DNA of 64,000 nucleotides, from contig OZ220705.1 in assembly GCA_965116515.1 (NCBI GenBank), forward strand, positions 1,697,329 through 1,761,328. The letters run 5' to 3'. Below the pieces are notes generated by a model. The model worked only from the letters and a program-made list of their open reading frames with translations. It made no database searches and was not told the origin of the DNA. The translations under genes and the position numbers were made by a program. Position 1 is the first letter of the stretch. Each line of letters begins with the position of its first letter. Positions 34,105-51,636 of the stretch are shown in pieces. The stretch comes from Alphaproteobacteria bacterium. Lineage in GTDB: Bacteria; Pseudomonadota; Alphaproteobacteria; SP197.

Positions 34105-35715
34105 ATGAGCGGACGCGACGGCCAACGCAAGGCGCCCTATGCCTGGTCGATGCCGGACTGGCCGTCCCCGGGACAGTCCACAGATGACGATGCCCTCGAA
34201 GTATGGGGCTACACGGATCGCATGTCCTACGAGGCGGGTGACGTGATCAGACTCCACGTCAGTGCGACACGTGCATTCTGGTCGCTGACGATCTACCGCG
34301 ATGGGGCATCGCCGCAGCGTGTCCTGCAGCGCCAGGACCTGCCCGGCCTGCGCCACGCCGTTCCCGACGACGCCTATGCCTCGGGCTGCGATTGGCCCGT
34401 GGCTCTCACCATCCCTGTCGATGAGGACTGGCCGACGGGTCTCTACATTGTTGTCCTCGGCATCGGCGACGGTTCGGACCACTTCGAGTCCGATGCCTTC
34501 TTTGTCGTGCGCAGCCCGGCCCGGAAACGGCGGAAGATCGGCTTCATGCTGACGACGAGCACCCTGATTGCCTACAATGACTGGGGAGGCGCCAATCACT
34601 ATCGCGGCCTTGGGAACGACCCGCGTGACGACATCGCTTCGCCGGTGTTGTCGACACAGCGTCCCGTGGGCCGCGGCTTTCTGCGCAAGCCGGCTGAAGC
34701 GCCGCGCGAATCCCATGCCTTCTCGCCGCCGATCGGCTGGCAGCCCCGCTATCCCTCCTACGAATGGGCACGTCTCTACGACATGAGCAGGCATCATGCC
34801 GATGCCTTCTGGGCGACCTACGAGAGACTGTTTGCCGTGTGGGCCGAGAACCGGGGCTATGAACTCGATTATCTGACACAGCACGACCTTCACTTCGACG
34901 AGAGCAGCCTCGAGGGCTTTGATGCGCTGGTGATCATCGGACACGACGAGTACTGGACCTGGGAGATGCGCGACCGGGTCGACGACTTCGTTGATCGCGG
35001 TGGCGGCCTTGCCCGTTTCGCCGGGAACTTCTACTGGCAGGTGCGGCTGTCCGATGACGGGACCACGCAGTACTGCTACCGGGTTCCCGATGCCGATCCC
35101 GCCACGTCCACCACGCCGCACCTGGCGACCACCGCATGGGATTGCACCCTGATCGGACGTCCGGCGGCGACGACGATGGGACTGACGGGCATGTCTGGAA
35201 CCTACAACCGATACGGAGTGGCGGCGCCCCGCTCTTCGGGAGGCTATACCGTTTACCGGCCGCGGCACTGGGCCTTCGCCGGGACCGATCTCTACTACGG
35301 CGATCTCCTGGGCGGTACGCCTGTCAATCTCGCGACTTTCGAACTCGACGCGGTGGAGTACACCTTCCGCCGCGGGCTTCCGTTCCCGACTTTCGAGGAT
35401 GGCGCCCCGGAATCCCTGGAAATCCTCGCCCTGGCGCCCGCGGTACGCGGCGAGGAGGACCGTTTCGGCGGCACTGTCCCGCTCAATGGTCCGTTGCACG
35501 AGGCCGAGCAGATCATGGAGGCGCTGGGCGACCTGCTGCCGGCTCACTGCCGCGAGAACGAGGGACGCGGCGCCGGCATGATCGCCACCTTCACCCGCGG
35601 CAGGGGAGAGGTGTTCAACGGCGGCTCGACGGAATGGCCGCGGGCGCTGGAACTGCGCGATCCCTTTGTCGAGCGCATCGTCGCCAACGTTCTCGGCCGG
35701 TTCACCGCGTCGTGA
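34105..35715 (+). CDS. N,N-dimethylformamidase large (beta) subunit family protein
   Basis: VWGYTDRMSY, DWPTGLY, TLIAYNDWGGANHY, IIGHDEYWTWEMRD, FAGNFYWQV and GEVFNGGSTEW motifs. Confidence 0.8.
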   Translation: MSGRDGQRKAPYAWSMPDWPSPGQSTDDDALEVWGYTDRMSYEAGDVIRLHVSATRAFWSLTIYRDGASPQRVLQRQDLPGLRHAVPDDAYASGCDWPVALTIPVDEDWPTGLYIVVLGIGDGSDHFESDAFFVVRSPARKRRKIGFMLTTSTLIAYNDWGGANHYRGLGNDPRDDIASPVLSTQRPVGRGFLRKPAEAPRESHAFSPPIGWQPRYPSYEWARLYDMSRHHADAFWATYERLFAVWAENRGYELDYLTQHDLHFDESSLEGFDALVIIGHDEYWTWEMRDRVDDFVDRGGGLARFAGNFYWQVRLSDDGTTQYCYRVPDADPATSTTPHLATTAWDCTLIGRPAATTMGLTGMSGTYNRYGVAAPRSSGGYTVYRPRHWAFAGTDLYYGDLLGGTPVNLATFELDAVEYTFRRGLPFPTFEDGAPESLEILALAPAVRGEEDRFGGTVPLNGPLHEAEQIMEALGDLLPAHCRENEGRGAGMIATFTRGRGEVFNGGSTEWPRALELRDPFVERIVANVLGRFTAS

Positions 35716-36015
35716 CTCCGCCGCCCGGACAGTCCCGGGATAGCAGCCTCATCGCCAACTCGCGCCAGTGGCCGGCAGTCGTCACGTGGAAGGGGTGGAT
35801 TGAAGTCCTTGTCCGGGGCTTCAGGAACATTGGCCGTCCAAGGTCGGGACGTGTTTCCCCGGCACGTTGGCCTTCCGGCAGGGGCGTCGGCATCCGGATC
35901 CAGCAACCCGACAGCGGGCAAGGGGCGCGGATGCTCTCACTCGATCGGCGTGTTCCAAGCGACATTGGCATGGAGGCCAGAGTCAGTTTGCCCAGGCGCA
36001 TTCCGGAACAAGAAT

Positions 36016-36032
36016 CAGACAGATGTTGTCTG
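36016..36032. promoter_or_regulatory. Inverted repeat CAGACA-N5-TGTCTG, candidate operator
   Basis: Lies about 110 nt upstream of the LIV-type SBP start. Confidence 0.3.
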
Positions 36033-36141
36033 CACGAAGGCGATAGTGGATGATGGCGGGATAACAGAGGAGATACGCGGGGGAGACACCGCGTCACATG
36101 TCGGATCTCCCCGAACCAGAAAACGGCAAGGAGGACAGATC

Positions 36142-37425
36142 ATGACTTTTGGCTCCATTGACAGACGCAGGTTCATTGGCACGTCGGCACTCGCTGGCGC
36201 CGCTGCGGCCACCACGGTGCATCCGGGTAGACTGCGCGCCGAGGAGACGGTCCGCATCGGATTTCTCGCACCACTGACAGGCGGCGTCGCAGCCTGGGGG
36301 CTGCCCGGACTCTATGGATGCGAAATCTGGGCAGAACAGAAGAACGCCGCCGGAGGCGTCGAGATCGGCGGGACGTCCTACAACGTCGAAATCGTCTCGT
36401 ACGACAACGAGTACCTTCCGGACAAGGCGCGCACCGGCGCCCAGAAGCTGATCAGCGAAGACGGCGTATCGTTCATCGAGATGCTCGGCGGCGACACCAT
36501 GCCTGCCGTGACCCCGATCGCCAATCGCGCCGAGATGCTCGTCTCGACGCTTCTTCCCTCGGACCTCTCGCCGGACACGCCCTTCCTGGTCGCGCCCGCG
36601 GAAGTCCATCCGATCTACAATCTCACGGGCGTCTGGTGGATGGCAGAGAACATGCCCGAAGCGAAGACGGCAGTGATCTGCGCCCAGGATGACGCGCTTG
36701 GCAGGCCCTCCGTGGCAACCTACCTCGCGGCATTCGAAGCGCACGGCATCGAGGTCAAGGACACGATCTTCTTCGACATCTCGACAACGGACTTCGCGCC
36801 CGTCATGACCGCGATGCTGGCTCACAAACCAGATATCCTGTGCCTCGACACGGCCTATGCGGAGTTTGTCAACGAGCTGTGCAAGCAGGCGTTCGTGCAG
36901 AACTACGGTGGCCAGATCATCTCCTGCACAGCGGATTTCTACGCTGACATCATCGCCAACACGTCCGAGGAGTTCATGGAGGGGGTGATCTTCCAGTTCC
37001 CCGACTTCGACGATCCGGCGCTCAACAGCGAGGACATCAACTTCAACGATCCCAACGGTTTCTTCGAGGTCTACAACGAGCGTCATCCCGGGCAGTGGGG
37101 TGCGGTATCCTGGGAGTACGCATCAATCCTCGATCTGTGGCTTGATGGCGCCCAGAAAGCGGGTTCCATCGAACCGGCAGCGGTGCTTGGTGGCATGAAG
37201 CAGGGCGGCAAGGGCGCCCACGCCTTCGGCGAGGCCAACTGGTGGGGCGAGGAGCTGTTCGGAATCGACAATGCGCTTGTCGGCAACTGGCCCGTGGTGC
37301 AGATCCAGAACGGGAAGGCCGTGATCGTCGAGTTCAAGAGCATCCCCGAGTGGTGGGGCGAACACAGTGCGACCATGATCAAGCACTTCGAAGCGATGGG
37401 CGAAATGTGGTACCAGCGCGCCTGA
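36142..37425 (+). CDS. LIV/HAAT-type ABC substrate-binding protein with Tat signal
   Basis: DRRRFIG Tat motif; RIGFLAPLTG and TDFAPV motifs; AGGAGG RBS. Confidence 0.88.
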   Translation: MTFGSIDRRRFIGTSALAGAAAATTVHPGRLRAEETVRIGFLAPLTGGVAAWGLPGLYGCEIWAEQKNAAGGVEIGGTSYNVEIVSYDNEYLPDKARTGAQKLISEDGVSFIEMLGGDTMPAVTPIANRAEMLVSTLLPSDLSPDTPFLVAPAEVHPIYNLTGVWWMAENMPEAKTAVICAQDDALGRPSVATYLAAFEAHGIEVKDTIFFDISTTDFAPVMTAMLAHKPDILCLDTAYAEFVNELCKQAFVQNYGGQIISCTADFYADIIANTSEEFMEGVIFQFPDFDDPALNSEDINFNDPNGFFEVYNERHPGQWGAVSWEYASILDLWLDGAQKAGSIEPAAVLGGMKQGGKGAHAFGEANWWGEELFGIDNALVGNWPVVQIQNGKAVIVEFKSIPEWWGEHSATMIKHFEAMGEMWYQRA

Positions 37426-37464
37426 TCACCTTCCCCGCCGGCCCGCGTGGCACGGCGGCACGCA

Positions 37465-37497
37465 ATACCGGGACCGGCCTTGTGCCGGGCCCGGTAT
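37465..37497 (+). terminator. Intercistronic stem-loop after the SBP gene
   Basis: ATACCGGGACCGGC-cttgt-GCCGGGCCCGGTAT. Such hairpins often stabilise SBP mRNA. Confidence 0.5.
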
Positions 37498-37523
37498 CGT
37501 CTTTCCGGACGTTTCGTTAGCCC

Positions 37524-38402
37524 ATGGACATCGCTGTCTTCCTGCAGACCTGCCTGAACGCGACCTATGCGTCGAGTTATCTGGCACTCGTTGCGGTCGG
37601 CCTCGTCCTCATCTTCGGCGTCATGCGGGTCGTGAACTTTGCCCACGGCGAACTCTACATGGCCGGCGCCTACTGCCTGTTCTGGGTGTTCTACCAGAAC
37701 GAACTGCCTTTCTTTGCGGGCGTTGCGGTCGCGGTTCTCGTTGTGGCCGCGGTCGGACTCTTCCTGGAGAGAACGATGTTCCGGCCCATGAAGGACAACC
37801 CGCTTGGAGGTCTCATCTGCTCGATCGGCGCCCTGCTGGTCCTGCAGGCCGGCGCCGTCTCTCTCTTCGGCGTCCGCAAGAAGTCATTTGCCGGTCCCTA
37901 CAATGAAGCCGTGACACTGTTCGGAGTCGACGCCCTGACCATTTCCGGCCAGCGTCTTGTCGTCATCGCCTTTGCCATCATCCTCCTTGGAGCCTTGTGG
38001 GCCTTCCTCCGGAAGAGCCGGTTCGGCTGGGCATTGCGTGCCGTCGCGCAGGATCCCGAGGCCGCGGCGCTGCAGGGAATCTCGATCAGCCGCATTTCGA
38101 TGCTCGCGATGGTTCTCGGCGCCGCGCTGGCGGGAGCCGCCGGGGCGCTGACTGCCACCATCGTGCCGACGGGCCCCTACATGGGACATCCGGTCATCAT
38201 TGGAGCCTTCATCGTCATCATCGTCGGAGGTCTGGGCAGCCTTGAGGGTGCGATCATTGCATCCGTGCTCTATGCCTTTACCCATACTTTCGTCACCACG
38301 CTCTTTGATGGCACGATTGCCGACATCACGGGCCTCGTGCTGATGCTCATCGTGCTCGTCGTGCGTCCGCACGGCCTTCTCGGCAAGCCGGAGCGCGCCT
38401 GA
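37524..38402 (+). CDS. LIV-type ABC permease (LivH-like)
   Basis: GLVLIFGVMRVVNFAHGE, RAVAQDPEAAALQGI and GGLGSLEG motifs. Confidence 0.9.
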   Translation: MDIAVFLQTCLNATYASSYLALVAVGLVLIFGVMRVVNFAHGELYMAGAYCLFWVFYQNELPFFAGVAVAVLVVAAVGLFLERTMFRPMKDNPLGGLICSIGALLVLQAGAVSLFGVRKKSFAGPYNEAVTLFGVDALTISGQRLVVIAFAIILLGALWAFLRKSRFGWALRAVAQDPEAAALQGISISRISMLAMVLGAALAGAAGALTATIVPTGPYMGHPVIIGAFIVIIVGGLGSLEGAIIASVLYAFTHTFVTTLFDGTIADITGLVLMLIVLVVRPHGLLGKPERA

Positions 38403-39469
38403 TGATGGGTGTTGTCACTTACGCGATCTGGCTTGCGCTCATTGCGCTGTCGCTGGCGGCGGCGGCCCTCAGTCTTGATCCACAACTCGGTGGCCCGCAC
38501 CGCCGCCGGTGGTGGCAGGGGCTCGCTCTCGCGTCGGCCGCCGTGCTTGCACTCTCACCCCACGTCGTGACCTTTTCGCAGCAGGAACTCCTCGTGTTCC
38601 TCACCATCAACACCTTGGTCGTGGTGAGCTACCGGCTGCTTGCGCTGACCGGCGAGTTCTCGCTCGGCCATGTTGTCATGATGGGGTTCGGGGCCTACGC
38701 ATCGGCCCTGCTCAGCAAGCAGCTCGCCATTCCCGTTCCGCTTTCGATCATCCTCGCCGCCGGTCTCACAGGCCTCGTCGCCTTCGTCCTGGCCTTTCCG
38801 CTGTTCCGCATGAAGGGGTTCTATTTCCTGATCGGGTCCTTTGCCGCGGGCGAGACCATCAGGTTGCTCTGGAAGGCCTTCATCGGTCCCAAGGGCATCT
38901 CCCGCATCCCCGGTGTTCCCGACATCGAGATCGGCGCCTGGGAGATCAATTTCTGGGAACCGGTCGCCTCGTACTACCTGATACTCGTGATCGCAGCCGT
39001 TTCCATCTGGATACTCTGGCGTATCGAGCATTCGCACGTCGGCCTGACCTTTCATGCCGTTCACTGGCGTGATCAGCTCGCCGGCGCGGTTGGTGTCAAC
39101 ACTTGGCGGACGAGGACCCAGGCCCTGGTCCTGGCGTCGTTCTTCGCCGGTCTCGCCGGCGCGCTGCTGGCGCACTATATCACCACCGTCAATCCCAACC
39201 GCTTTGCGGTCCACGAGATGGTGTTCGTGCTGATCTGGGTGATTGTCGGAGGCACGGCGACGATCTGGGGGCCCATCATCGGGCTCGTCACGCTGACCGC
39301 CATCAACGAGGTGCTGCTGCGGGATATCGGATACGACGAACTGCGCCCCCTTTTCTATGGCGTGCTCCTCGTTCTCGCCATGCTGTTTCTGCCGAACGGT
39401 CTCGAGACTCTGCCAGCACGCCTCGTCCGGCATTTCAGACGCGTGAGGCTCCTCGCATCACAGCGTTGA
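38402..39469 (+). CDS. LIV-type ABC permease (LivM-like)
   Basis: TGEFSLGH..MGFGAY, RMKGFYF, VIVGG..TIWGP and FLPNG motifs. Confidence 0.88.
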   Translation: MMGVVTYAIWLALIALSLAAAALSLDPQLGGPHRRRWWQGLALASAAVLALSPHVVTFSQQELLVFLTINTLVVVSYRLLALTGEFSLGHVVMMGFGAYASALLSKQLAIPVPLSIILAAGLTGLVAFVLAFPLFRMKGFYFLIGSFAAGETIRLLWKAFIGPKGISRIPGVPDIEIGAWEINFWEPVASYYLILVIAAVSIWILWRIEHSHVGLTFHAVHWRDQLAGAVGVNTWRTRTQALVLASFFAGLAGALLAHYITTVNPNRFAVHEMVFVLIWVIVGGTATIWGPIIGLVTLTAINEVLLRDIGYDELRPLFYGVLLVLAMLFLPNGLETLPARLVRHFRRVRLLASQR

Positions 39470-40133
39470 GGCGCCGCGCGGGGTCGAGCGTCGGCGGCAC
39501 GAGCAGCGCTGCGGCGTAAAGGCGCGCTTCGTCGTCCCTGACCACCGGCGGGTGTTCGGCAAAGCGGTCGATCTCGCGGCCCCGCACGAGTTCTCCAAGC
39601 CAGTGCGCCATGGCCGCGGCCGCCGACTCGCGATGTCCGAAGGCATCGCGCCGGCAGGCCAGGGCCGCCTCCATCGCCTGCCGGTCTCCTTGACGGGCGG
39701 CACGTTCGGCCTCGACAAGGGCCATGCCCGCGCGCAGCATCTTGCGGCATCGCTGGCGTGCGATGTCGGGATAGACACCGCGATGTTTCAATTCGAGCCG
39801 CATGTGGAAGAGCGAGCTGCGGGCACGGACGCCCAGCGCCATCCTCTCGACCCAGGGACCGGCGGCCTGCCATGCCTCGAGTGCGGCTTCAAGCCCCGCT
39901 TCGACACCCTCCGGCCCCGGAGACATCAGGGCAAGAGCGTGCGACGTTGCCGCCCGCCTCGGGTCGTCCGGCTCGAAGCCCGAGGCCAGCACGTCGGCCT
40001 GACTGCAGCACGCTGCCGCATGGGCCGGATCATCATCGAGCCATGCGGCGCGGGCTCCCGCCATCCAGTCCACCCACAGTTCGTCTCCCAAGCGCCAGCC
40101 CGAGCGGTCTTCCCTAGCCTCCGAGGTAGGCAC
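39435..40133 (-). CDS. Hypothetical Ala-rich helical protein co-transcribed with livG/livF
   Basis: Open frame fills the gap after livF. Probable GTG start at 40133 overlaps the livF end. Contains FEPDDPRRAATS and RARSSLFHMRLE. Confidence 0.6.
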   Translation of the reverse strand: MPTSEAREDRSGWRLGDELWVDWMAGARAAWLDDDPAHAAACCSQADVLASGFEPDDPRRAATSHALALMSPGPEGVEAGLEAALEAWQAAGPWVERMALGVRARSSLFHMRLELKHRGVYPDIARQRCRKMLRAGMALVEAERAARQGDRQAMEAALACRRDAFGHRESAAAAMAHWLGELVRGREIDRFAEHPPVVRDDEARLYAAALLVPPTLDPARRLNAVMRGASRV

Positions 40134-40824
40134 GGCGGACGTGTTCATTCTCGCGCAGCACATCGGTCGGTCCGTCCAGCGCGATGCGGCCGGTTTCAAG
40201 CACGTAGCCGTAACTTGCCAGGTGAAGCGCCAGGCTGGCGTTCTGCTCGACGAGAATGACGGGAACGCCCTTCCGGTTGATATCGCCGATGATCGCGGCA
40301 ATCTCCTGCACCATCAGGGGCGACAGCCCGATCGAGGGCTCGTCCATCAGCAGCAGCCGTGGCGCCGCCATCAGGGCGCGCCCCATGGCCAGCATCTGCT
40401 GTTCACCGCCCGACAATGTCTTGGCGTACTGGCCACGCCGCTCGCGCAACCGTGGAAAATGGCCATAAACCATGTCGAGATCGGACCGGACCGACGGGCC
40501 GTCATGGCGGAGATAGGCGCCTGTCATCAGGTTTTCCAGGACCGTCAGTTCCGGAAAGACGCGGCGGCCCTCGGGGACATGGGCGATGCCGCGGGCGACA
40601 ATGCGGTCGGGCTCGAGTCCGTCGATTCTCTCGCCTTCGAACATGATCGTCCCCGCGGTGGGACGATTGAGCCCGGACAGGGTTCGCAGGGTCGTCGACT
40701 TTCCAGCTCCGTTGGCGCCGATCAGGGTGATGATGTCCGCCGCCTGCAACCGGATGTCGATTCCCTTGATGGCCTGGACCTTGCCATAGTGAACCTCAAG
40801 TCCCGTCACCTCCAGGAGAGTCAC
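40114..40824 (-). CDS. LIV-type ABC ATPase (LivF-like)
   Basis: GANGAGKST, VPEGRRVF, LSGGEQQMLAMGRAL, DEPSIGL and VEQNA motifs. Confidence 0.92.
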   Translation of the reverse strand: MTLLEVTGLEVHYGKVQAIKGIDIRLQAADIITLIGANGAGKSTTLRTLSGLNRPTAGTIMFEGERIDGLEPDRIVARGIAHVPEGRRVFPELTVLENLMTGAYLRHDGPSVRSDLDMVYGHFPRLRERRGQYAKTLSGGEQQMLAMGRALMAAPRLLLMDEPSIGLSPLMVQEIAAIIGDINRKGVPVILVEQNASLALHLASYGYVLETGRIALDGPTDVLRENEHVRRAYLGG

Positions 40825-41600
40825 GCCACGCCCTCGATCGGGGTCCCGAGGTAGGCATCGACAACCTCGGGATTGGCGCGGATCGCCTCGGGGTCTCCCT
40901 CGGCAAGCAGGGTGCCGAAATTGAGCACGGTGATCGTCTCGCACAGACCCATGACGGCCTGCATGTCATGCTCGACGAGGAGAATGGTGACCCCCCGGTC
41001 CCGCACCTGGCGCACGAGATTCATCATGCGACGTGTCTCGTCCGGATTCATGCCCGTGAACGGCTCGTCGAGCAGGAGCAGTCGCGGTTCTGCGGCCAGC
41101 GCGACGGCGACCCCCAGTGTGCGCTGAAGTCCATGGGGGAGATTTGCGCACGACTCACCGGCGACTCCGTCGAGCCCCATGAATGCGAGGATCTCCTCCA
41201 CCCGGGCCAGGGCCTCCTCCTGGCGCTCCCGCTGCCGGCCGAGGAGGACGCTCACGAGCCCGATCCTTGCGCCGAGATGGCAACCGGCGAGAACATTCTC
41301 GGCGACAGTGAGTTCGTGGAACAGGGTTGTCGCCTGGAACGTGCGAACGAGGCCCAGTGCGGCGATGGCATGGGTCGCCATGCCCGAGATGTCTCGTCCG
41401 GCGTAGATCACGCGTCCCCTCGTTGGCCTGTAGAATCCGGAGATTACGTTGAAGGTCGTGGTCTTGCCGGCGCCGTTTGGCCCGATGAGTCCGTGGATCG
41501 CACCTTCCTTCACGGTGAAGGTGAGGTTGTCCACCGCCGTCAGGCCGCCGAATCGCCGTGTCAGGCCCTCGATGTTCAGCACGGCTGTCTGCTGTCCCAC
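40821..41600 (-). CDS. LIV-type ABC ATPase (LivG-like)
   Basis: FGGLTAV, GPNGAGKTT, RTFQ, VEHDM and VVDAYLG motifs. Confidence 0.92.
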   Translation of the reverse strand: MGQQTAVLNIEGLTRRFGGLTAVDNLTFTVKEGAIHGLIGPNGAGKTTTFNVISGFYRPTRGRVIYAGRDISGMATHAIAALGLVRTFQATTLFHELTVAENVLAGCHLGARIGLVSVLLGRQRERQEEALARVEEILAFMGLDGVAGESCANLPHGLQRTLGVAVALAAEPRLLLLDEPFTGMNPDETRRMMNLVRQVRDRGVTILLVEHDMQAVMGLCETITVLNFGTLLAEGDPEAIRANPEVVDAYLGTPIEGVA

Positions 41601-42526: not shown

Positions 42527-42844
42527 GCGGTGACGCTCGTCGTCAGCATGTGCATTCTGGAGTGTTCCGACATTCGGCCCGCAGTCTGGCTTCAACCCTT
42601 ACGAGTGTCACGGGAACGTGCAGCGCCCTGATTGCGTCTCAAAGGGAAAATGCCGGGAACGCCCGCCTTCACATGAATGTCACCATGGCCACCGTTGACC
42701 CATTGCCTTCGGGTCGTCAGTTCGCCGCATCCGGATGCCGACCGGTTCGCCCGGGATGAGGGAGCGTGCGATAGTCCTCAACAAGGCGACATGACCGCAG
42801 GCAGAGCCTCGGACATGGGCCTCCGGCGACTGGTGGCGTGCGGC

Positions 42845-44488
42845 ATGAAGGCTTGTGACTACATCATCATTGGCGCGGGCTCCGCGGGCTGCGTGCTCGC
42901 CAACAGGCTCAGTGCCGACGGGCGTCACTCCGTTCTCCTTCTTGAGGCAGGCCCGATGGATCGCCACCTGATGATCCACATTCCGGCCGGATTCTACAGC
43001 GCCTACAAGGATCCCCGAATCAACTGGAACTACCTGACGGAGCCCGAATCCGGGCTTCGCGGCCGTCAGGTGGAGATGCCGCGGGGCAAGGTGGTCGGCG
43101 GTTCGTCGTCGATCAACGGCATGGTCTACATGCGGGGACATCCACTGGATTACGACCTGTGGGCAGACGAACTCGGCCTTGAGGCTTGGCGTTACGCAGA
43201 CTGCCTTCCCTACTTCAGGGCAGGAGAGACCAGTGATCGCGGGGCCAGCGACTGGAGGGGCGGCGACGGACCGCTGGGCGTGACGAAGGGCACGTCCGAC
43301 AATCCGCTCTATCACGCCTTCCTCGAGGCTGGCGCGATGGCCGGTCAAGGCACGACCGACGATCCCAACGGCTACGAGCCGGAAGGAGTCTCCCGACTTG
43401 ACCGCACCACCCGGAGCGGGCGCCGGTGCAGCGCCGCCATGGCCCACCTGCACCCGTCGCTTTCGCGCGCCAACCTCACTCTTATCACACGCGCAACGGT
43501 CGAGCGGATTGCCGTCAGCGGAAATCGTGCTTGCGCGGTCACGTTCTCTCACGGTGGAGAAAGCCGCACGGTCGAGGCCGAAAGGGAGGTGATCCTGTCC
43601 GGCGGGGCCTTCAACTCGCCCCAGATCCTCATGCTGTCGGGCATCGGACCGGCCGACCATCTGCGCGAGCATGGCATCGAGGTCCGGTGCGATCTTCCGG
43701 GGGTCGGCCAGAACCTGCAGGACCATGTCTCGGTCGCGATCACGTGGGCATGCACCCGCTCGTTTCCGGTGCACCGGGTCGACCGTCCGCTCAACAGGCT
43801 GCTTGCGGGCGCCGGATGGTTCCTGACGCGCGGGGGGCTCGCCGCGTCCAACCACTTCGAGGCCGGTGGCCTCATTCGAGGCAATCCGGACGTCGCCTAT
43901 CCCAACCTGCAGTACCACTTCGGGCCGATCGGCTACGAGCACGAAGGAACGAAGCTCAGGCTGAAGCAGGCGTTCATGCTCCAGGTCGATCAGCTCAGGC
44001 CGAGAAGTCGGGGGCACATGGCTTTGAAGTCCGCCGATCCCGGCGCAAGCCCGGCGATGTTCTTGCGCTATCTCAGCAATTCCCATGATCTGCGGGAACT
44101 CGTCGAGGCCGTTAGGAAGATGCGGGATCTCGTCGCTCAGCCGGCGTTCGGCGAACTGCGTGGTGCCGAACTCACGCCCGGACCCGACGTGCAGACAGAC
44201 GCGGAGGTCGCAGAGGCGGTGCGTGCCCTGGCCACAACGGATTTCCATCCCTGCGGAACCTGCCGCATGGGCCATGGCGCCGATGCCGTGGTCGATTCGG
44301 AACTCAGGGTTCACGGCATGGAAGCCCTGCGCGTGGTCGACGCCTCGGTCATGCCGCGCGTGGTCAGCGGCAATCTCAATGCGCCGACCCAGATGGTCGC
44401 CTCGCGGGCCGCCGACTGGATTCTCGGCACGCCGCAGCTTGAGCCCTTCGAGGCTCGTTTCGCATTCAGGAAGGCGGATCCGGAATGA
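42845..44488 (+). CDS. GMC oxidoreductase, choline dehydrogenase-like
   Basis: GAGSAGCVLANRLS, GGSSSINGMVYMRG, GQNLQDH, FHPCGTCRMG and SGNLNAPT motifs. Confidence 0.88.
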   Translation: MKACDYIIIGAGSAGCVLANRLSADGRHSVLLLEAGPMDRHLMIHIPAGFYSAYKDPRINWNYLTEPESGLRGRQVEMPRGKVVGGSSSINGMVYMRGHPLDYDLWADELGLEAWRYADCLPYFRAGETSDRGASDWRGGDGPLGVTKGTSDNPLYHAFLEAGAMAGQGTTDDPNGYEPEGVSRLDRTTRSGRRCSAAMAHLHPSLSRANLTLITRATVERIAVSGNRACAVTFSHGGESRTVEAEREVILSGGAFNSPQILMLSGIGPADHLREHGIEVRCDLPGVGQNLQDHVSVAITWACTRSFPVHRVDRPLNRLLAGAGWFLTRGGLAASNHFEAGGLIRGNPDVAYPNLQYHFGPIGYEHEGTKLRLKQAFMLQVDQLRPRSRGHMALKSADPGASPAMFLRYLSNSHDLRELVEAVRKMRDLVAQPAFGELRGAELTPGPDVQTDAEVAEAVRALATTDFHPCGTCRMGHGADAVVDSELRVHGMEALRVVDASVMPRVVSGNLNAPTQMVASRAADWILGTPQLEPFEARFAFRKADPE

Positions 44489-44570
44489 CCGCGGTCCCTT
44501 GCCGATTGCATCGTCGCCAATGTGCCCGACCGGATCACGGCATCCGGTAGCCTGAACCAGGGAGGAACCC

Positions 44571-46151
44571 ATGGACATATCTGACGCCAAACGCTCGGCA
44601 CTCGACTGGGTCGATGGCCATCGTCAATCGCTCTCCGACTGGCACACGACAATCTGGGACCTTCATGAGCCGGCCTGGCGGGAGTACCGGTCGGCGGCCT
44701 GGTACGTCGATCGCCTGCGCCGCGAGGGATTCGAGGTCGAGGAAGGATCCGGGGGCATGCCGACTGCCTTCTGCGCCACCTGGTCCAACGGTGACGGACC
44801 GACGATCGGCTCCTATGCGGAGTACGACGCTGTTCCCGGCAACAACCAGGATCGCGTTCCCTGGCGCAAGCTGCGTGACGGCACCCATCATGCCGCCGCC
44901 GGACACACCGATCCCCACTCCGCCCTCGGTGTGTCGGCTCTGGGTGGCGTTCTGGCGGCCAAGGCGGCGATGGAACGGCACGGCGCCGGAGGGCGGCTGA
45001 AGTTCATGGGCGAACCGGCGGAGAAGGTGTGCGGATCCAAGCCTGTCCATGCGGCGAAGGGTTACTACGACGACATGGACGCGGCGGTCTCGTTTCATCC
45101 TTCTTACGGGACCCTGCGCACCAACACCTGCATTCTCGACACCCACTGCGGCAGCTACTGGAGCCGCATCTACAGCTTCATCTGCGATTCCCCGGAGACG
45201 TGGCGGAGCGTCGGCGCCCCCGGTCCATCGACCTCCCACACCATCGCCCGGGCGCCCGGGGCCAATGATGCGCTGTGCCTGATGTACACGACCACCAAGT
45301 ACACGAAGGAGTCGATGCTGCCGCACACGGGCACGTGGACACTGAACGAAGCACTGCTGGCGACCGGCAATGCGACGAGTGACAACCTGGCGCCGCGGTT
45401 CAGCCAGATCCAGTACTCCTGGAGGTCGCCGACGCTGGAGATGCAGCAGCGAATCGCCGATGTGCTCGACCGGAATGCCGAACATGTCGCCGCCATGACC
45501 CACTGCCGCCTGGAAGCTCACTGGGTGACGCGTACGCGGGTAGGGTTGCCCAACCACGCGATGGCCCGTCTCGCCTATGCGAATCTCGAGCTGGTCGGCG
45601 GACCGCAATGGGATGACGAGGCCAGGTCCTTCTGCCGGGAACTGCAGAAGAATCTGGGGATCGAACCCATGGAGGAGCCGATCCTCGCCGAGATGACGGA
45701 TCTCTGCCGTCCGGAGGAGGGTGAGGCGCAACTGCGCGCCATCCTGCCGCCGTGGCAGCTCAACTACACCTCCGACGACTACGTCGACTGGACATGGCAT
45801 ACGCCCACGGTTCGGCTGATCGTCGGCCGCTGCACCCTGAAGGCTCCCGAGGGCTATACCTATCCGGACTGGTCATGGAATGCTCTGGGCGGCCATGCGC
45901 CGACCATCGATCCGACCATCATGTGCGCTGCGAAGGTGATCGGTGCGACCATCGTCGACCTCATCACCGATCCGCAGCGCCTCGATGAGGCGCGCGCGGA
46001 ATTCGAGGAGAGGACCGGAGGCGGTATCGGTGGATCGTCCTGGGTGGCGCCGTTGTTGCCGCGCGATTTCCAGCCGCCGGTCGGCTTCGCCTGGCCGGAG
46101 TACGTCACGACAGCGCGAGGGGAAAGCTGGTATGTGCCGCAGAGCGCCTGA
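44571..46151 (+). CDS. M20 family amidohydrolase (AbgB-like)
   Basis: EPAWREYRS, GMPTAF, AEYDAVPG, GEPAEK and SDD motifs. Confidence 0.8.
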   Translation: MDISDAKRSALDWVDGHRQSLSDWHTTIWDLHEPAWREYRSAAWYVDRLRREGFEVEEGSGGMPTAFCATWSNGDGPTIGSYAEYDAVPGNNQDRVPWRKLRDGTHHAAAGHTDPHSALGVSALGGVLAAKAAMERHGAGGRLKFMGEPAEKVCGSKPVHAAKGYYDDMDAAVSFHPSYGTLRTNTCILDTHCGSYWSRIYSFICDSPETWRSVGAPGPSTSHTIARAPGANDALCLMYTTTKYTKESMLPHTGTWTLNEALLATGNATSDNLAPRFSQIQYSWRSPTLEMQQRIADVLDRNAEHVAAMTHCRLEAHWVTRTRVGLPNHAMARLAYANLELVGGPQWDDEARSFCRELQKNLGIEPMEEPILAEMTDLCRPEEGEAQLRAILPPWQLNYTSDDYVDWTWHTPTVRLIVGRCTLKAPEGYTYPDWSWNALGGHAPTIDPTIMCAAKVIGATIVDLITDPQRLDEARAEFEERTGGGIGGSSWVAPLLPRDFQPPVGFAWPEYVTTARGESWYVPQSA

Positions 46152-46153
46152 CG

Positions 46154-47038
46154 TCAGCCGTTGCGCCGCCACGCGCCGAGGGCGCGGGTGAAGCGGTCGA
46201 GGTAGTCCGCCGTGTAGGCCACATAGTCGACGTCCAGGAGCGAGTGGGTCTCCTGGACCATGCTCCACATCGCTTCGCGCAAGAGGGATGCGCAGGCCAG
46301 TGCCCCGAGGCGACGCCTCACCTCATCGGTGATGTTCTGGTCCAGAGCCAGTTCAGCTACCGTCCCCAGGCCGTCGGTGTCGAGGTGGTTGTTGGAGGCA
46401 AGGTTGGCGATGTCGAAGAGTGCCGTGTTGTAGCCGGCGTATTCCCAGTCGACGAGCCACAGCCTCTCGCCGTCATCGAGGAAGTTCGCGGCCAGCAGGT
46501 CGTTGTGGCAGAGCACCGGGCGGATCGGGCCGACGGCCGCCTCCAGTTCCTGCGCTGCTTCGAGGAGCTGCGGAACCTCCGCCAGCAGGCGATGGCGGTC
46601 GTCGTGGAGACGGTGCCCGTAGTCGCGGATCACGTGGAAAACCCAAAAAAACGGGGCCCGGCCGCGCAAGTGACGCGCGCCGTTGCGGTGCAGGCGGGCC
46701 AGCAGGTCCGCTATGCGTTCGAGATTGCGGGGATCGCGCACATCGGCATCGTCGAAGGTGTGGCCGTCGATCCAGCGCACAACCAGGACGCCCTTGGCGG
46801 TAAAGTGGACCTCCGGGGCGATGCCTGCCGCATGCGCTGCGCGGCTGCAGGCGGTCTCGTAGGTCCGGCGGATGCCATGGACAGGAATGTTGCCCCCCAC
46901 CCGCACCAAGAAGCTCCTCGCGCCGTCGTCGACGCGGAAGTTGAGGTTTGTGATGCCCCCATCGATCGGGCGGGGCGTCACCGGCCCGTTCCAGCAGGGC
47001 AGTCCGGCGGCCCTGGCAGCCGCCTCGTCATGCGTCAT
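46154..47038 (-). CDS. Choline/ethanolamine kinase family phosphotransferase
   Basis: GGITNLNF, Brenner motif CHNDLLAAN, and LVDWEYAG. Overlaps the DUF2948 end. Confidence 0.85.
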   Translation of the reverse strand: MTHDEAAARAAGLPCWNGPVTPRPIDGGITNLNFRVDDGARSFLVRVGGNIPVHGIRRTYETACSRAAHAAGIAPEVHFTAKGVLVVRWIDGHTFDDADVRDPRNLERIADLLARLHRNGARHLRGRAPFFWVFHVIRDYGHRLHDDRHRLLAEVPQLLEAAQELEAAVGPIRPVLCHNDLLAANFLDDGERLWLVDWEYAGYNTALFDIANLASNNHLDTDGLGTVAELALDQNITDEVRRRLGALACASLLREAMWSMVQETHSLLDVDYVAYTADYLDRFTRALGAWRRNG

Positions 47039-47477
47039 GATGATCGCCTCCCGCCATCGCGGTGTACCGGGGCGTGTCCCTGGCTGCGGCCGGTTGGCCG
47101 ATATCGGCGAGGCGGCCTTCGATGGCGTCGGTCTCGAGACGGATGAGGCCACCCTTGCGGAAGACGAGGGACACGGAAACGCCGGTCTCCCGGCGGCCGT
47201 CGCTGACAATGGTCATCAGCTCCGCATCGCCGTCGCCTCCCAGGCCTTCGAGATCCCAGGTCTCGACCCTGGCGACGCGGTCGAGAACGAGCGCGCAGTC
47301 GACCTGCATGCCCTCTCCACCGGGGAGTTCATAGCAGAACCGTCGGAAAAGGGCGGCAAACCGCTGGTCCTCCTCCACCCAGGTTACCTCTGCAAGGGGC
47401 ATGCGTGCGCTCTGCAACACGGTGGCGAAGACCTCCAGGTCGTCATCGTCGACAGCCTTGAGACGCAGCGTCTTCAT
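47028..47477 (-). CDS. DUF2948 family protein
   Basis: LRLKAVDDDDLEV...LQ...RF.YE...GG.IRL pattern. Usual position after murA in Alphaproteobacteria. Confidence 0.8.
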   Translation of the reverse strand: MKTLRLKAVDDDDLEVFATVLQSARMPLAEVTWVEEDQRFAALFRRFCYELPGGEGMQVDCALVLDRVARVETWDLEGLGGDGDAELMTIVSDGRRETGVSVSLVFRKGGLIRLETDAIEGRLADIGQPAAARDTPRYTAMAGGDHHDA

Positions 47478-49056: not shown

Positions 49057-49131
49057 GCCGCCGTAGCTCAGTGGTAGAGCGCACCCTTGGTAAGGGTGAG
49101 GTCCTCAGTTCAATCCTGAGCGGCGGCACCA
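49057..49131 (+). tRNA. tRNA-Thr(GGT)
   Basis: GCCGCCGTAGCTCAGTGGTAGAGCGCACCCTTGGTAAGGGTGAGGTCCTCAGTTCAATCCTGAGCGGCGGCACCA folds as a cloverleaf with encoded CCA. Confidence 0.97.
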
Positions 49132-49241
49132 CACCTTGAGACGATATCCGACCCGTGCCCCGGCACCAAGGCTGCAACGGCTTGATAGCGGCGGCATGAG
49201 GTGCGTTATGGTGACGGTTTCTCCAGGGACAGGTGGCCGCC

Positions 49242-49925
49242 ATGATGCTGACCCCGACAGAGCTCGAACGCATGACCATCTTCGTCGTCGCCGAGATGGC
49301 AAGGCGGCGCAAGGAGCGCGGCCTCAGGCTCAATCACCCTGAAGCCCACGCCTACATTGCCGATACCCTGCTCGAAGGGGCGCGGGAAGGGCGCAGCGTC
49401 GCCGACCTTGCAGGCTGGGGCGCGACGCTGCTCTCCAGCGACGACGTTATGCCGGGCGTGGCGGCACTGATTCCGATCGTCCAGGTCGAGGGACTCTTCC
49501 CGGATGGCGCCAAGCTGATCACGGTGCACCAGCCCATTCGTCCGCACACCGGTGGCGCGCAACCGGGAGAGGTGATGACCCCGGATTCGGACATCACGCT
49601 CAACGCCGGCCGTCGGCGGGTCGGTCTTGCGGTGCTCAACACAGGCGACCGGCCGGTCCAGGTGGGGAGCCACCACCACTTCTTCGAGGCCAATCCCGCT
49701 CTCGACTTCGATCGCGAGGCGGCATTCGGCATGCGCCTCGACATCGCGGCCGGGACGGCCGTTCGCTTCGAACCCGGCGAGAGCCGCACTGTCACGCTGG
49801 TGGCCTATGGCGGCGACGGCATGGTGGGCGGGTTCAATCGCCTTGTCGAAGGATCCCTGGACGATGCGGATATCCGCGACCGGGCCCTTCGACGGGCCCG
49901 AAGACGCGGCTTCAGGGGGGCGTGA
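49242..49925 (+). CDS. ureAB: Urease gamma/beta fusion subunit
   Basis: Gamma part MLTPTE...GLRLNHPEA...[11 protein letters not shown] is fused to beta part [19 protein letters not shown]...[15 protein letters not shown]. Confidence 0.9.
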
Positions 49926-49926
49926 C

Positions 49927-51636
49927 ATGGCGAGGATGTCCAGGGCGCGCTACGCCGGAACCTACGGGCCGACCACGGGCGATCGCGTCAGGCTCGGCGA
50001 CACGAGCCTCCTGGCCGCGGTCACCAGGGATCACCTTGTGGCGGGCGACGAACTGACCACGGGGGCGGGAAAGAGCTATCGCGACGGCATGGGGATGGAC
50101 TCCGGCGCCCGCCACGACGAAGGAGCTCTCGATCTCGTCATTCACAACGCCCTCGTGATCGATCCCGTGATCGGAATCGTGAAGGCCGACATCGGCGTGC
50201 GTGAGGGCCGCGTTGCCGGGATCGGCAAGGCGGGCAATCCGCGAATCATGGATGGCGTCCATCCCGGACTGGTCTGTGGACCCTCGACTGTCGTCGCCCA
50301 TGGCGAACGCCTGATCGCCACGCCGGGCGGCATCGATGTCCATGTCCACTTCAAGTCGCCCGATCTGGTGCGCCATGCCCTTGCCACCGGTCTGACCACC
50401 CTGGTGGGCGGTGGCCACGGTCCGCTCTTCAGCATCGATTCCGGTGGCGCCTGGACAACCGGGCGCATGCTGCAGGCCACCGACGCCCTGCCGATGAACT
50501 TCGGCTTTCTCGGGCGCGGCAGCACGAGCCGGGCCACGGGCATACTTGAACATGTCGCCTCCGGCATCATCGGCATCAAGGTGCACGAGGACTACGGGGC
50601 GAGTCCGGCGGCGATCGACACGGCACTCGGCGTCGCCGACGACGTCGACTTCCAGGTGCAGCTCCACACGGACACGCTGAACGAATCGGGTTTCTACGAA
50701 TCCACCATGGCTGCGATCGCCGGGCGCACCATCCACATGTATCACACCGAGGGTGCGGGCGGAGGTCATGCTCCCGACATCATCCGCTGCAACGGCGAAG
50801 CCCATTGCCTGCCGTCCTCGACCAATCCGACCAACCCCTTCACCGTCAACACGTTCGATGAACACCTCGACATGGTGATGGCGGTGCATCACCTGTCTGC
50901 GGATTCACCCGAGGATGTGGCCTTCGCCGAGAGCCGGATCCGCCGAACCACCACGGCGGCCGAAGACATTCTTCATGATCTCGGGGCGATCTCCATGTTC
51001 GGCTCCGACAGCATGGGCATGGGCCGGGTGAACGAGGTCGTGGCGCGCTGCTGGCAATTGGCCAGCAAGATGCGGGATCAGCGCGGACCTCTCGATGGTG
51101 AGCCGGTGGAGGGCGCCGACAACGCGCGTATCCTGAGATATCTCGCCAAGTACACGATCAACGCGGCCCGGGTCTTCGGCATCGATCACGAGGTGGGCAG
51201 CCTGGAAAGCGGGAAGATGGCCGACATCGTGCTGTGGAAGCCGGCGTTCTTCGGGCTCAAGCCACAGACCGTGATCAAGGGCGGCTTCACCACATTCGCG
51301 GCCATCGGCGACGCCGCGGCAAGCATCGGCCACGCCGATCCGGTCCTCGAGAGACCTGCCTGGGGCATGTCCGGTCGCGCGCCGTCGTCCATCGCGACAA
51401 CATTCGTCCACTCCTCGTCCATCGGGCAAGACCTGGCCGGCAGGCTGGATCTCGCGAAGCCCCTCACGGCGATCGGGCCGACGCGCCTGCTCACCAAGGC
51501 GGACATGCTCCACAACGATGCCCTGCCGGAGATCCGCGTCGATCCACAGACCTTCGAGGTGGTGGTCGATGGCCAGGTGGCGTGGTGCGAACCGGCAGAT
51601 CGCGTGGCCCTGGGACAGCTCTACCTTCTCGGATAG
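49927..51636 (+). CDS. ureC: Divergent urease alpha subunit-like metallo-amidohydrolase
   Basis: [49 protein letters not shown] and SDS motifs. Several pocket residues are altered (see findings). Confidence 0.88.

Follow-up and report, generated by a model that had tools for sequence, protein, structure and literature searches.

A stand-alone fused-subunit urease pair with intact catalytic residues and a remodelled active-site pocket in an alphaproteobacterial genome

Ureases are regarded as enzymes of high substrate specificity, and the question whether an altered pocket still belongs to a urea-splitting enzyme is raised by two adjacent genes, ureAB and ureC, on a 64,000-nucleotide stretch (the window) of an alphaproteobacterial genome (contig OZ220705.1, assembly GCA_965116515.1). 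In automatic annotation, the label 'urease subunit alpha' is given to all members of this family. A first-pass annotation, made from the sequence letters alone, had described ureC as a urease homologue with an intact metal centre, and had taken concerted changes of the pocket and the flap to suggest another substrate, perhaps a bulkier amide or a substituted urea. The analysis presented here indicates that the window pair is an intact, selected, fused-subunit urease with all catalytic residues, which probably still splits urea, and that it belongs to a clade of orphan pairs that appears to have left the accessory genes of the fused-subunit family.

Both genes are encoded on the + strand, with one base between the stop of ureAB and the start of ureC (Table 1). 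The ureAB product scored 331.8 bits against NCBIfam NF009671, above the cut-off of 243, and Pfam domains were assigned as Urease_gamma at residues 1-99 (about 1-100) and Urease_beta at residues about 108-204/208. The ureC product passed TIGR01792, the equivalog model for EC 3.5.1.5, with 762.7 bits (cut-off 680) and NF009686 with 801.2 bits (cut-off 354), stayed under the cut-offs of the narrower equivalogs NF009685, NF009834 and NF010591, and matched the urease of Sporosarcina pasteurii with an E-value of 3.8e-185. Neither a urease accessory gene nor a urea transporter adjoins the window pair.

The window ureC was compared residue by residue with S. pasteurii urease, whose numbering is used here as the canonical one and which took the place of the Klebsiella aerogenes motif strings of the first-pass annotation. 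All six metal ligands (H139, H141, K218, H247, H273 and D361) were found, together with H220, D222, G278, H321 and R337, which correspond to His222, Asp224, Gly280, His323 and Arg339, so that the ligands, the catalytic His and the flap-adjacent Arg named at first pass were confirmed. In excerpts of PMC7433671, roles are assigned to the carbonyls of Ala170, Ala366 and Gly280, to His222, to the Asp224-His323-Arg339 triad and to Cys322; the backbone carbonyls of Ala170 and Ala366 touch urea, and ten residues are named as enclosing the K. aerogenes pocket. Seven of these ten are retained in the window ureC, the lost ones being Ala167 (loop remodelled), Cys319 (replaced by Val) and Ala363 (replaced by Gly).

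The S. pasteurii loop sequence GGGTGPAEGSKATTVTPGPW aligns to the pocket loop of the window ureC with a 4-residue gap, which comprises the segment carrying Ala170 (the GGGTGP...ATT loop). In the flap, MVCHH has become MAVHH, with Val320 (codon at 50884-50886) in the place of Cys322. SDSMGMGR stands where canonical ureases have SD(S/A)(Q/L)AMGR (TDALAMGR in S. pasteurii itself, with Leu at position 365), HEDWG is replaced by HEDYG, and TGAGK is found for FGGGK, which canonical-type sequences carry as KFGGGK. All of these changes had been listed at first pass, and the coordinates given there for the loop and the Val codon are exact. Both urea-contacting alanines are missing, Ala170 with its deleted segment and Ala366 through replacement by Gly; as the two contacts are made by the backbone, the geometry could persist.

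A neofunctionalised urease-family amidohydrolase, which keeps the di-nickel site intact and has an N-substituted urea, hydroxyurea, a small amide or another ureide as its main substrate, is an alternative that we regard as possible, although it is not what we expect. The pocket would then take its new shape from the remodelled loop with its new invariant His164, from a flap tip made hydrophobic by Val/Ile in the place of Cys, and from Tyr223/Met363, and the Ala170 carbonyl contact to urea described in the excerpts of PMC7433671 has no alignable counterpart in the window ureC. However, the seven retained pocket residues and the complete set of catalytic residues speak against it.

An AlphaFold2 model of the window ureC was obtained with a mean predicted local distance difference test score (pLDDT) of 92.3 and a predicted template modelling score (pTM) of 0.94, the pLDDT being 81 in the loop block and 85-90 in the flap. 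Superposition on solved ureases gave template modelling (TM) scores of 0.96-0.97 and root mean square deviations of 1.3-1.9 Å at identities of at most 53%, so that no solved structure comes from the fused short-loop lineage. The canonical nickel ureases of S. pasteurii, K. aerogenes, Helicobacter pylori and jack bean (4ceu, 2kau, 1e9z and 3la4; 49-53% identity) share the fold, the ligands and the triad with the window enzyme, but differ by the long Ala170 loop, Ala366, Cys322 and Trp225. Their gamma and beta subunits are encoded by separate genes, except in Helicobacter and plants, and their accessory genes are usually linked.

Phylogenetic trees were built from the best 120 of 8000 scored homologues, 79 species-representative genome loci, 80 metagenome loci and the copies from the genus. 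A search of representatives at 50% identity lumped most ureases into few clusters and left the clade unresolved, whereas a search at 90% resolved it. Trees rooted on canonical ureases (FastTree, 250 sequences; IQ-TREE with LG+G4, 59 chosen rows, SH-aLRT support) separated canonical long-loop ureases, in which A and B are distinct genes, remote clusters with a short loop that are partly actinobacterial by their source names, a core fused type (support 95) and the orphan pairs. The orphan pairs are monophyletic (support 100), sister to the core type, and fall into subclades a (with the window gene), a2, b (with the second pair of the same genome), c and d. Clade a comprises 32 unique sequences that are 68-100% identical; it is a distinct and conserved clade with the same substitutions, the observation that the first-pass annotation had named as supporting its claim, and it is under purifying selection.

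The conservation table covers 310 unique sequences, of which 8 are canonical, 210 of the core type, 32 from clade a, 9 from a2, 33 from b, 10 from c and 8 other. The metal ligands, His222, Glu223, Asp224, Gly280, His323, Arg339 and Met367 are invariant among them, with one a2 exception at Asp224. In the core type the motifs LHGGGK, GGSLGPITVGID(C/S)GG, HEDWG, MVCHH and SDSQGMGR are essentially invariant, and the window ureC departs from them. The short loop and Ala366 to Gly, however, are common to all fused-family sequences, the core type included. The proposal that concerted pocket changes suggest another substrate was thus upheld in part, in that a conserved clade exists, while the clade-specific part of the changes is smaller than had been claimed. 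Specific to clade a are Cys322 to Val (22/32) or Ile (10/32), Val321 to Thr/Ala, Trp225 to Tyr, Gln365 to Met, Thr/Leu162 to His, GGGHGP and a few others (Table 2). In the loop, all members of clades a and a2 carry His164.

Of the 219 columns conserved alike in core and canonical sequences, only 10 differ in clade a from the consensus that the two share. Compared with the core type alone, a substitution is fixed in clade a at 19 of 353 conserved alignment columns, and by a looser criterion the core residue is lost at 28 of 318 columns. Nine of these 28 columns belong to the loop or lie at most 3 residues from a ligand or a residue of the pocket, compared with 63/318 among all columns (p = 0.076, calculated on related sequences). 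The enrichment of clade-a changes near active-site positions is therefore suggestive but weak, which counts against a neofunctionalised enzyme.

To place the window pair in its family context, the neighbour genes of 202 loci were clustered. The core type lies in ureE-F-(AB)-C-G-D operons that are commonly preceded by an Urt-type ATP-binding cassette (ABC) importer, with a UrtA-family binding protein in 58 of the 85 core loci that have at least 4.5 kb upstream. Among six core-linked binding proteins compared with TIGR03407 (cut-off 492.75), those of L010 (524), Pseudomonas syringae L057 (539) and Methyloversatilis universalis L017 (520) passed, and UrtC near a core operon scored 339 (cut-off 296). 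Recurrent neighbours encode an aliphatic amidase (28 loci; 715 vs 427), an arginase-family protein (18 loci) and a glutamine synthetase III-like protein (12 loci). In view of this context, the core-type substrate is likely to be urea, or urea and short amides. Since the importer-linked core type shares the short loop and Ala366 to Gly with the window enzyme, neither change in itself marks a non-urea enzyme, and this sharing counts against neofunctionalisation. A canonical-type alpha subunit of 52-55% identity is also present in all five named core-operon genomes checked, an observation in favour of neofunctionalisation; the core type is a second system beside the canonical urease and may not be redundant with it. 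At L015, L022, L025 and L030, a gene for a second, distant UreG/HypB-like GTPase (26-32% identical to the UreG of the window genome) and an arginase-family gene are located about 3 kb 5' of the core operon.

Among loci flanked by 2.5 kb or more on each side, the complete set of four accessory genes adjoins the pair in 80/81 core loci, in 0/4 clade-a loci and in 1/13 clade-b loci, and 7/7 clade-c loci have ureD only. The one clade-b locus with the complete set is on a metagenome contig (L154) with the order ureE-F-G-D-(AB)-C. The source assembly of the window, a single 4.71-Mb contig, holds exactly two urease alpha homologues, both of the orphan type, and no canonical or core-type urease. The second fused ureAB and ureC pair (C1:4091046-4093453, clade b, locus L002) is 60% identical to the window pair and more diverged around the active site, with the motifs HAH, GGGFAGCW, HEDLG, MLCHT and SDAEGMGR. 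A gene for an MFS transporter occurs in the shared neighbour cluster of 14 of the 28 clade-b loci that were clustered. A single stand-alone ureE-ureF-ureG-ureD cluster was found at C1:27484-30025 (L003), 1.7 Mb from the window pair and with no structural gene adjoining. Its products exceed their cut-offs (UreG 250.9/204.2, UreE 179.7/162, UreF 86.2/23.3, UreD 110.7/27). The genome further encodes a NicO-family metal transporter, and no HupE/UreJ was found in it.

Given the missing linkage, an accessory-independent or non-nickel urease comparable to the iron-containing UreA2B2 of Helicobacter mustelae was considered. That enzyme (3qga, among the structural matches with a TM score of 0.96; E 1.6e-170, 48% identity) has a fused small subunit, is a second urease in its genome and has no linked accessory genes; the gamma/beta layout of the window pair is Helicobacter-like, and none of the four clade-a loci has an accessory gene. 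We nevertheless regard this alternative as improbable. The ligand set is the canonical nickel one, ureEFGD is intact in the genome, the genus orphan pairs strictly co-occur with ureEFGD (both in 21/22 genomes, neither in 1/22), and on L154 a b-type pair lies directly 3' of a ureEFGD set.

The reading that we favour, with moderate confidence and about evenly balanced against the alternatives taken together, is that of a nickel urease paralogue which is matured in trans and hydrolyses internally made urea. UreAB and UreC would assemble as in solved ureases, K218 would be carbamylated, and two nickel ions would be inserted in trans by the single unlinked ureE-F-G-D set. A bridging hydroxide would then attack the nickel-bound substrate, and His321 of the flap, Asp222 and Arg337 would take the roles of their S. 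pasteurii counterparts. The substrate would most likely be urea released by arginase-family ureohydrolases, and the ammonia set free would be assimilated. The clade-specific changes (Cys to Val, Val to Ala/Thr, Trp to Tyr, Gln to Met and the loop His) may tune kinetics, flap dynamics or the range of side substrates and would not abolish urea hydrolysis. This reading is suggested by the family models, the invariant ligands and catalytic residues, the few departures from the shared consensus, purifying selection, the structural match, the co-occurrence with accessory genes and the NicO-family transporter.

That the urea is made internally is suggested by the many ureohydrolases in a genome without a canonical or core urease and without urea carboxylase (none above cut-off). 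Thirteen arginase-family ureohydrolases were matched by profile hidden Markov models (HMMs) and 12 by tblastn (e.g. C1:631542-632357, 1822612-1823427 and 2016906-2017721), and UrtA was not found above cut-off in this genome (best score 248 vs 492.75). Across the genus, arginase-family matches number 5-21 per genome. This expansion suggests a broad use of guanidino compounds with urea as a product; no relation between ureohydrolase copy number and the presence of clade a is visible in the genus.

An alpha homologue is present in 21 of the 22 other genomes of the genus, and each of these 21 has exactly one UreF gene, never adjacent to the alpha gene; the one genome without alpha is also without UreF. 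Clade b occurs in all 21 alpha-bearing genomes. Clade a occurs in 13 of them, as full or contig-end-cut copies, and with the window genome in 14/23. Core-type orphan pairs are found in four genomes of the genus (one of them interrupted) and canonical split ureABC in three. Compared with six orthologues of 95-97% identity, the ratio of non-synonymous to synonymous substitution rates (dN/dS) of the window gene is 0.055-0.073 at dS 0.24-0.37, from which it follows that the motif changes are not decay, the outcome that the first-pass annotation had named as speaking against its claim; more distant members give ratios of 0.11-0.27, at dS values close to saturation. Clade a is thus dispensable in the genus yet selected, an accessory paralogue, and the single accessory set is kept wherever any pair is.

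Some copies in the genus are damaged. A fragmented clade-a remnant was found in G005 (L144), the ureAB of G015 (L100) reads in two frames, maybe through an assembly error, and in G012 (L135) the last 60 codons of a core-type ureC lie about 2 kb away, which suggests an insertion. The genus thus shows signs of a turnover of urease paralogues. The remnant, the two-frame ureAB and the dispensability of clade a (14/23) would agree with a redundant duplicate heading for loss, or with a non-catalytic protein, but we regard either as highly improbable in view of the low dN/dS, the lack of stops and catalytic residues that are invariant over 32 members down to 68% identity.

Several observations weigh against the favoured reading. 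Trp225, Val321, Cys322, His324 and Gln365 are invariant in the 210 core and 8 canonical sequences, yet they are altered in the orphans subclade by subclade and conserved within each subclade, the pattern expected if specificity shifted. Orphan pairs coexist with canonical ureases (G017, G020 and G022) or with core-type pairs (G002, G010 and G011), with 2-3 paralogues per genome, so that simple redundancy is unlikely. The case for urea use in the core type comes from gene context, with which such use is compatible, and three of the six core-linked binding proteins score below the UrtA cut-off (342, 361 and 377). UrtA is above cut-off in 0/23 genomes of the genus, carriers of canonical ureABC included, and was therefore discarded as uninformative for discriminating urease types in the genus. 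In the literature searched, mostly listings and abstracts, no assay of a fused-family enzyme was found, whether of the core type or of the orphans. Searches there for functional studies of these enzymes or of their locus tags led to the cluster description of 2008 and to nothing else.

The variation of a monophyletic orphan clade (SH-aLRT 100, core type 95) at flap and pocket-edge positions, and the upkeep under purifying selection of several differently signed paralogues per genome, even beside canonical ureases, also favour neofunctionalisation. They would further agree with a wider proposal, which we consider doubtful, that the orphan clade (a, a2, b, c and d) is a radiation of nickel amidohydrolases off urea, each subclade being tuned to its own ureide or amide and all sharing one ureEFGD set; N-substituted ureas, such as those formed from substituted guanidino compounds by the expanded ureohydrolases, could serve as substrates. 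Against neofunctionalisation, no riboswitch and, in the genus, no discriminating transporter was found, and no conserved neighbour points to another substrate, the contexts varying by lineage. Outside the genus, the neighbours of clade a include genes for OpuAC-type and family-5 NikA-like binding proteins, a LysR regulator, an MttB-family methyltransferase and a 2-oxoglutarate (2OG) oxygenase, which recur in 2-3 related-lineage loci only, a number too small to be informative. A urease-family enzyme with another physiological substrate was not found in the literature searched. Nothing computed here demonstrates a non-urea substrate for the window enzyme.

Among the closest known systems is the ureEF(AB)CGD cluster, which excerpts of Contreras-Rodriguez et al. 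(2008; PMC2492869) present as a third architecture; examples are Psyr_2197 in P. syringae B728a and, in Bradyrhizobium sp. BTAi1, Bbta_1962 and Bbta_4442. It shares the fused gamma/beta subunit, the short loop and Ala366 to Gly with the window pair at 61-65% alpha identity, and its accessory proteins are 43-65% (UreE), 36-49% (UreF), 63-77% (UreG) and 26-41% (UreD) identical to those of the window genome. Unlike this type, the window pair lies outside such an operon, has a loop that is one residue shorter, has Trp225, Val321, Cys322 and Gln365 replaced, and has no UrtA-family importer alongside. The same excerpts record stand-alone ure(AB)C pairs in Streptomyces (SCO5525/SCO5526 and SAV2715), which resemble the window pair by description, not by sequence, as two-gene fused-subunit ureases without adjacent accessory genes; in the papers listed for them, no function was found. 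The actinobacterial short-loop clusters of the tree (e.g. P0021, Euzebyaceae; P0023, Nanopelagicales) form a remote group outside the core and orphan clades. Among the long-loop cluster representatives, two (P0013 and P0020) have Ala at the flap Cys position. Other full-length, urease-alpha-like long-loop representatives (P0017, P0025, P0029, P0032, P0036, P0045 and others) lack several metal ligands, with HxH, Lys or Asp replaced, and are possible non-catalytic urease homologues.

In the window, the pair is flanked on the 5' side by tRNA-Thr and a divergent murA, and on the 3' side by a class IV aminotransferase gene on the opposite strand and a gene for a class II ribonucleotide reductase. 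The tRNA-Thr is missing upstream of the orthologue in loci L004/L105. An upstream block (Table 1) is kept in nine close orthologues, among which the sequence further 5' diverges; it is a candidate promoter or regulatory site, proposed with low confidence, that was missed by a promoter scan and whose spacing is unlike sigma-70. A sigma-54 promoter GGCAC-N5-CTGCA at 49162-49176 was rejected, as one match compares with 0.68 expected, at least one match occurred in 49/100 shuffles, and the site is not conserved in orthologues. A search for riboswitches and other Rfam families beside the gene in the window and seven related loci returned only two tRNAs. From a single small RNA run of a sponge (X20, 33 M letters), contigs were obtained on the tRNA and the neighbouring aminotransferase and none on ureAB/ureC, which is uninformative either way. 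Most public sequencing runs in which this stretch occurs are metagenomes of sponges or come from coded host organisms, so that the source is a sponge-associated alphaproteobacterium.

The first-pass annotation had also pointed to the scavenging of nitrogen compounds nearby. At 34105-41600 of the window, a gene for a protein similar to the N,N-dimethylformamidase beta subunit (Pfam DMFA2_C, 235 bits) adjoins one for a Peripla_BP_6 binding protein, followed by Liv/Urt-type ABC permeases and ATPases that all score under the Urt cut-offs. This region, about 8-15 kb 5' of ureAB, may be a module for the uptake and hydrolysis of amides, and to this extent the remark holds; housekeeping genes lie in between, however, and the module is not kept beside the gene in relatives. 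The region 42677-47209 encodes a choline dehydrogenase-like GMC oxidoreductase (NF002550, 694 bits vs 605), a 526-aa open reading frame that matches amidohydrolases in part, and a protein of the choline/ethanolamine kinase family. For the latter, the guanitoxin kinase GntI gave the best NCBIfam score (150.7 bits, under the cut-off of 357).

Table 1. Coordinates of the urease genes, active-site elements and upstream features in the window
Feature	Position	Strand	Basis or remark
ureAB, fused urease gamma/beta subunit, 227 aa	49242..49925	+	stop TGA 49923-49925; NCBIfam NF009671, Pfam
ureC, urease alpha (catalytic) subunit, 569 aa, orphan clade a	49927..51636	+	TIGR01792, NF009686
HxH nickel ligands H139/H141 (S. 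pasteurii His137/His139)	50341..50349	+	invariant in 310 sequences
Remodelled pocket loop, 16 residues	50407..50454	+	4 shorter than canonical, 1 shorter than core fused type
K218 (carbamylated-lysine position), H220, E221, D222, Y223 (Trp225 to Tyr)	50578..50595	+	alignment, conservation table
H247 ligand (His249)	50665..50667	+	alignment, conservation table
H273 ligand (His275)	50743..50745	+	conservation table
Mobile flap: residue 319, V320 (Cys322 to Val), H321 (catalytic His323), H322, R337 (Arg339)	50872..50943	+	alignment; roles from excerpts of PMC7433671
D361 ligand (Asp363), M363 (Gln/Leu365 to Met), G364 (Ala366 to Gly), M365, G366, R367	51007..51027	+	alignment, conservation table
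tRNA-Thr(GGT), directly 5' of ureAB	49057..49131	+	ARAGORN; Rfam RF00005, 70.4 bits; context only
Conserved upstream block TTGATA ... GTTATGGT, candidate site	49182..49212	+	kept in 9 close orthologue upstream regions (aligned by eye)

Table 2. Residues at pocket and flap positions by group (S. pasteurii numbering)
Position	Canonical	Core	a	a2	b	c
162	Thr	Leu	His	His	aromatic	Met
225	Trp	Trp	Tyr	Tyr	Leu/Ile	Tyr
321	Val	Val	Thr/Ala	Val	Leu	Ala
322	Cys	Cys	Val/Ile	Ala	Cys	Cys
324	His	His	His	Arg	Thr/Met/Ser	Leu
365	Gln (S. pasteurii Leu in pairwise alignment)	Gln	Met	Gln/Glu	Glu	Gln

The ureEF(AB)CGD lineage and stand-alone pairs were already described in 2008, and the most conspicuous remodelling belongs to that widespread lineage. 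Mapped here is a large fused-subunit lineage that holds stand-alone pairs variable at positions which are invariant in 218 sequences. If urea is still split, the window pair shows how far the urea pocket can be rebuilt, without the Ala170 loop and without the flap Cys, and that several apo-enzymes encoded at dispersed sites can share one UreEFGD set. If urea is not the substrate, inferences on urea cycling from metagenomes, here of sponge symbionts, would count too many ureases, and the nickel amidohydrolases would gain a new class; a radiation of the orphan clade off urea would be the first case in the urease family of an enzyme whose physiological substrate is not urea. The window enzyme is a well-defined and intact candidate for deciding this substrate question.

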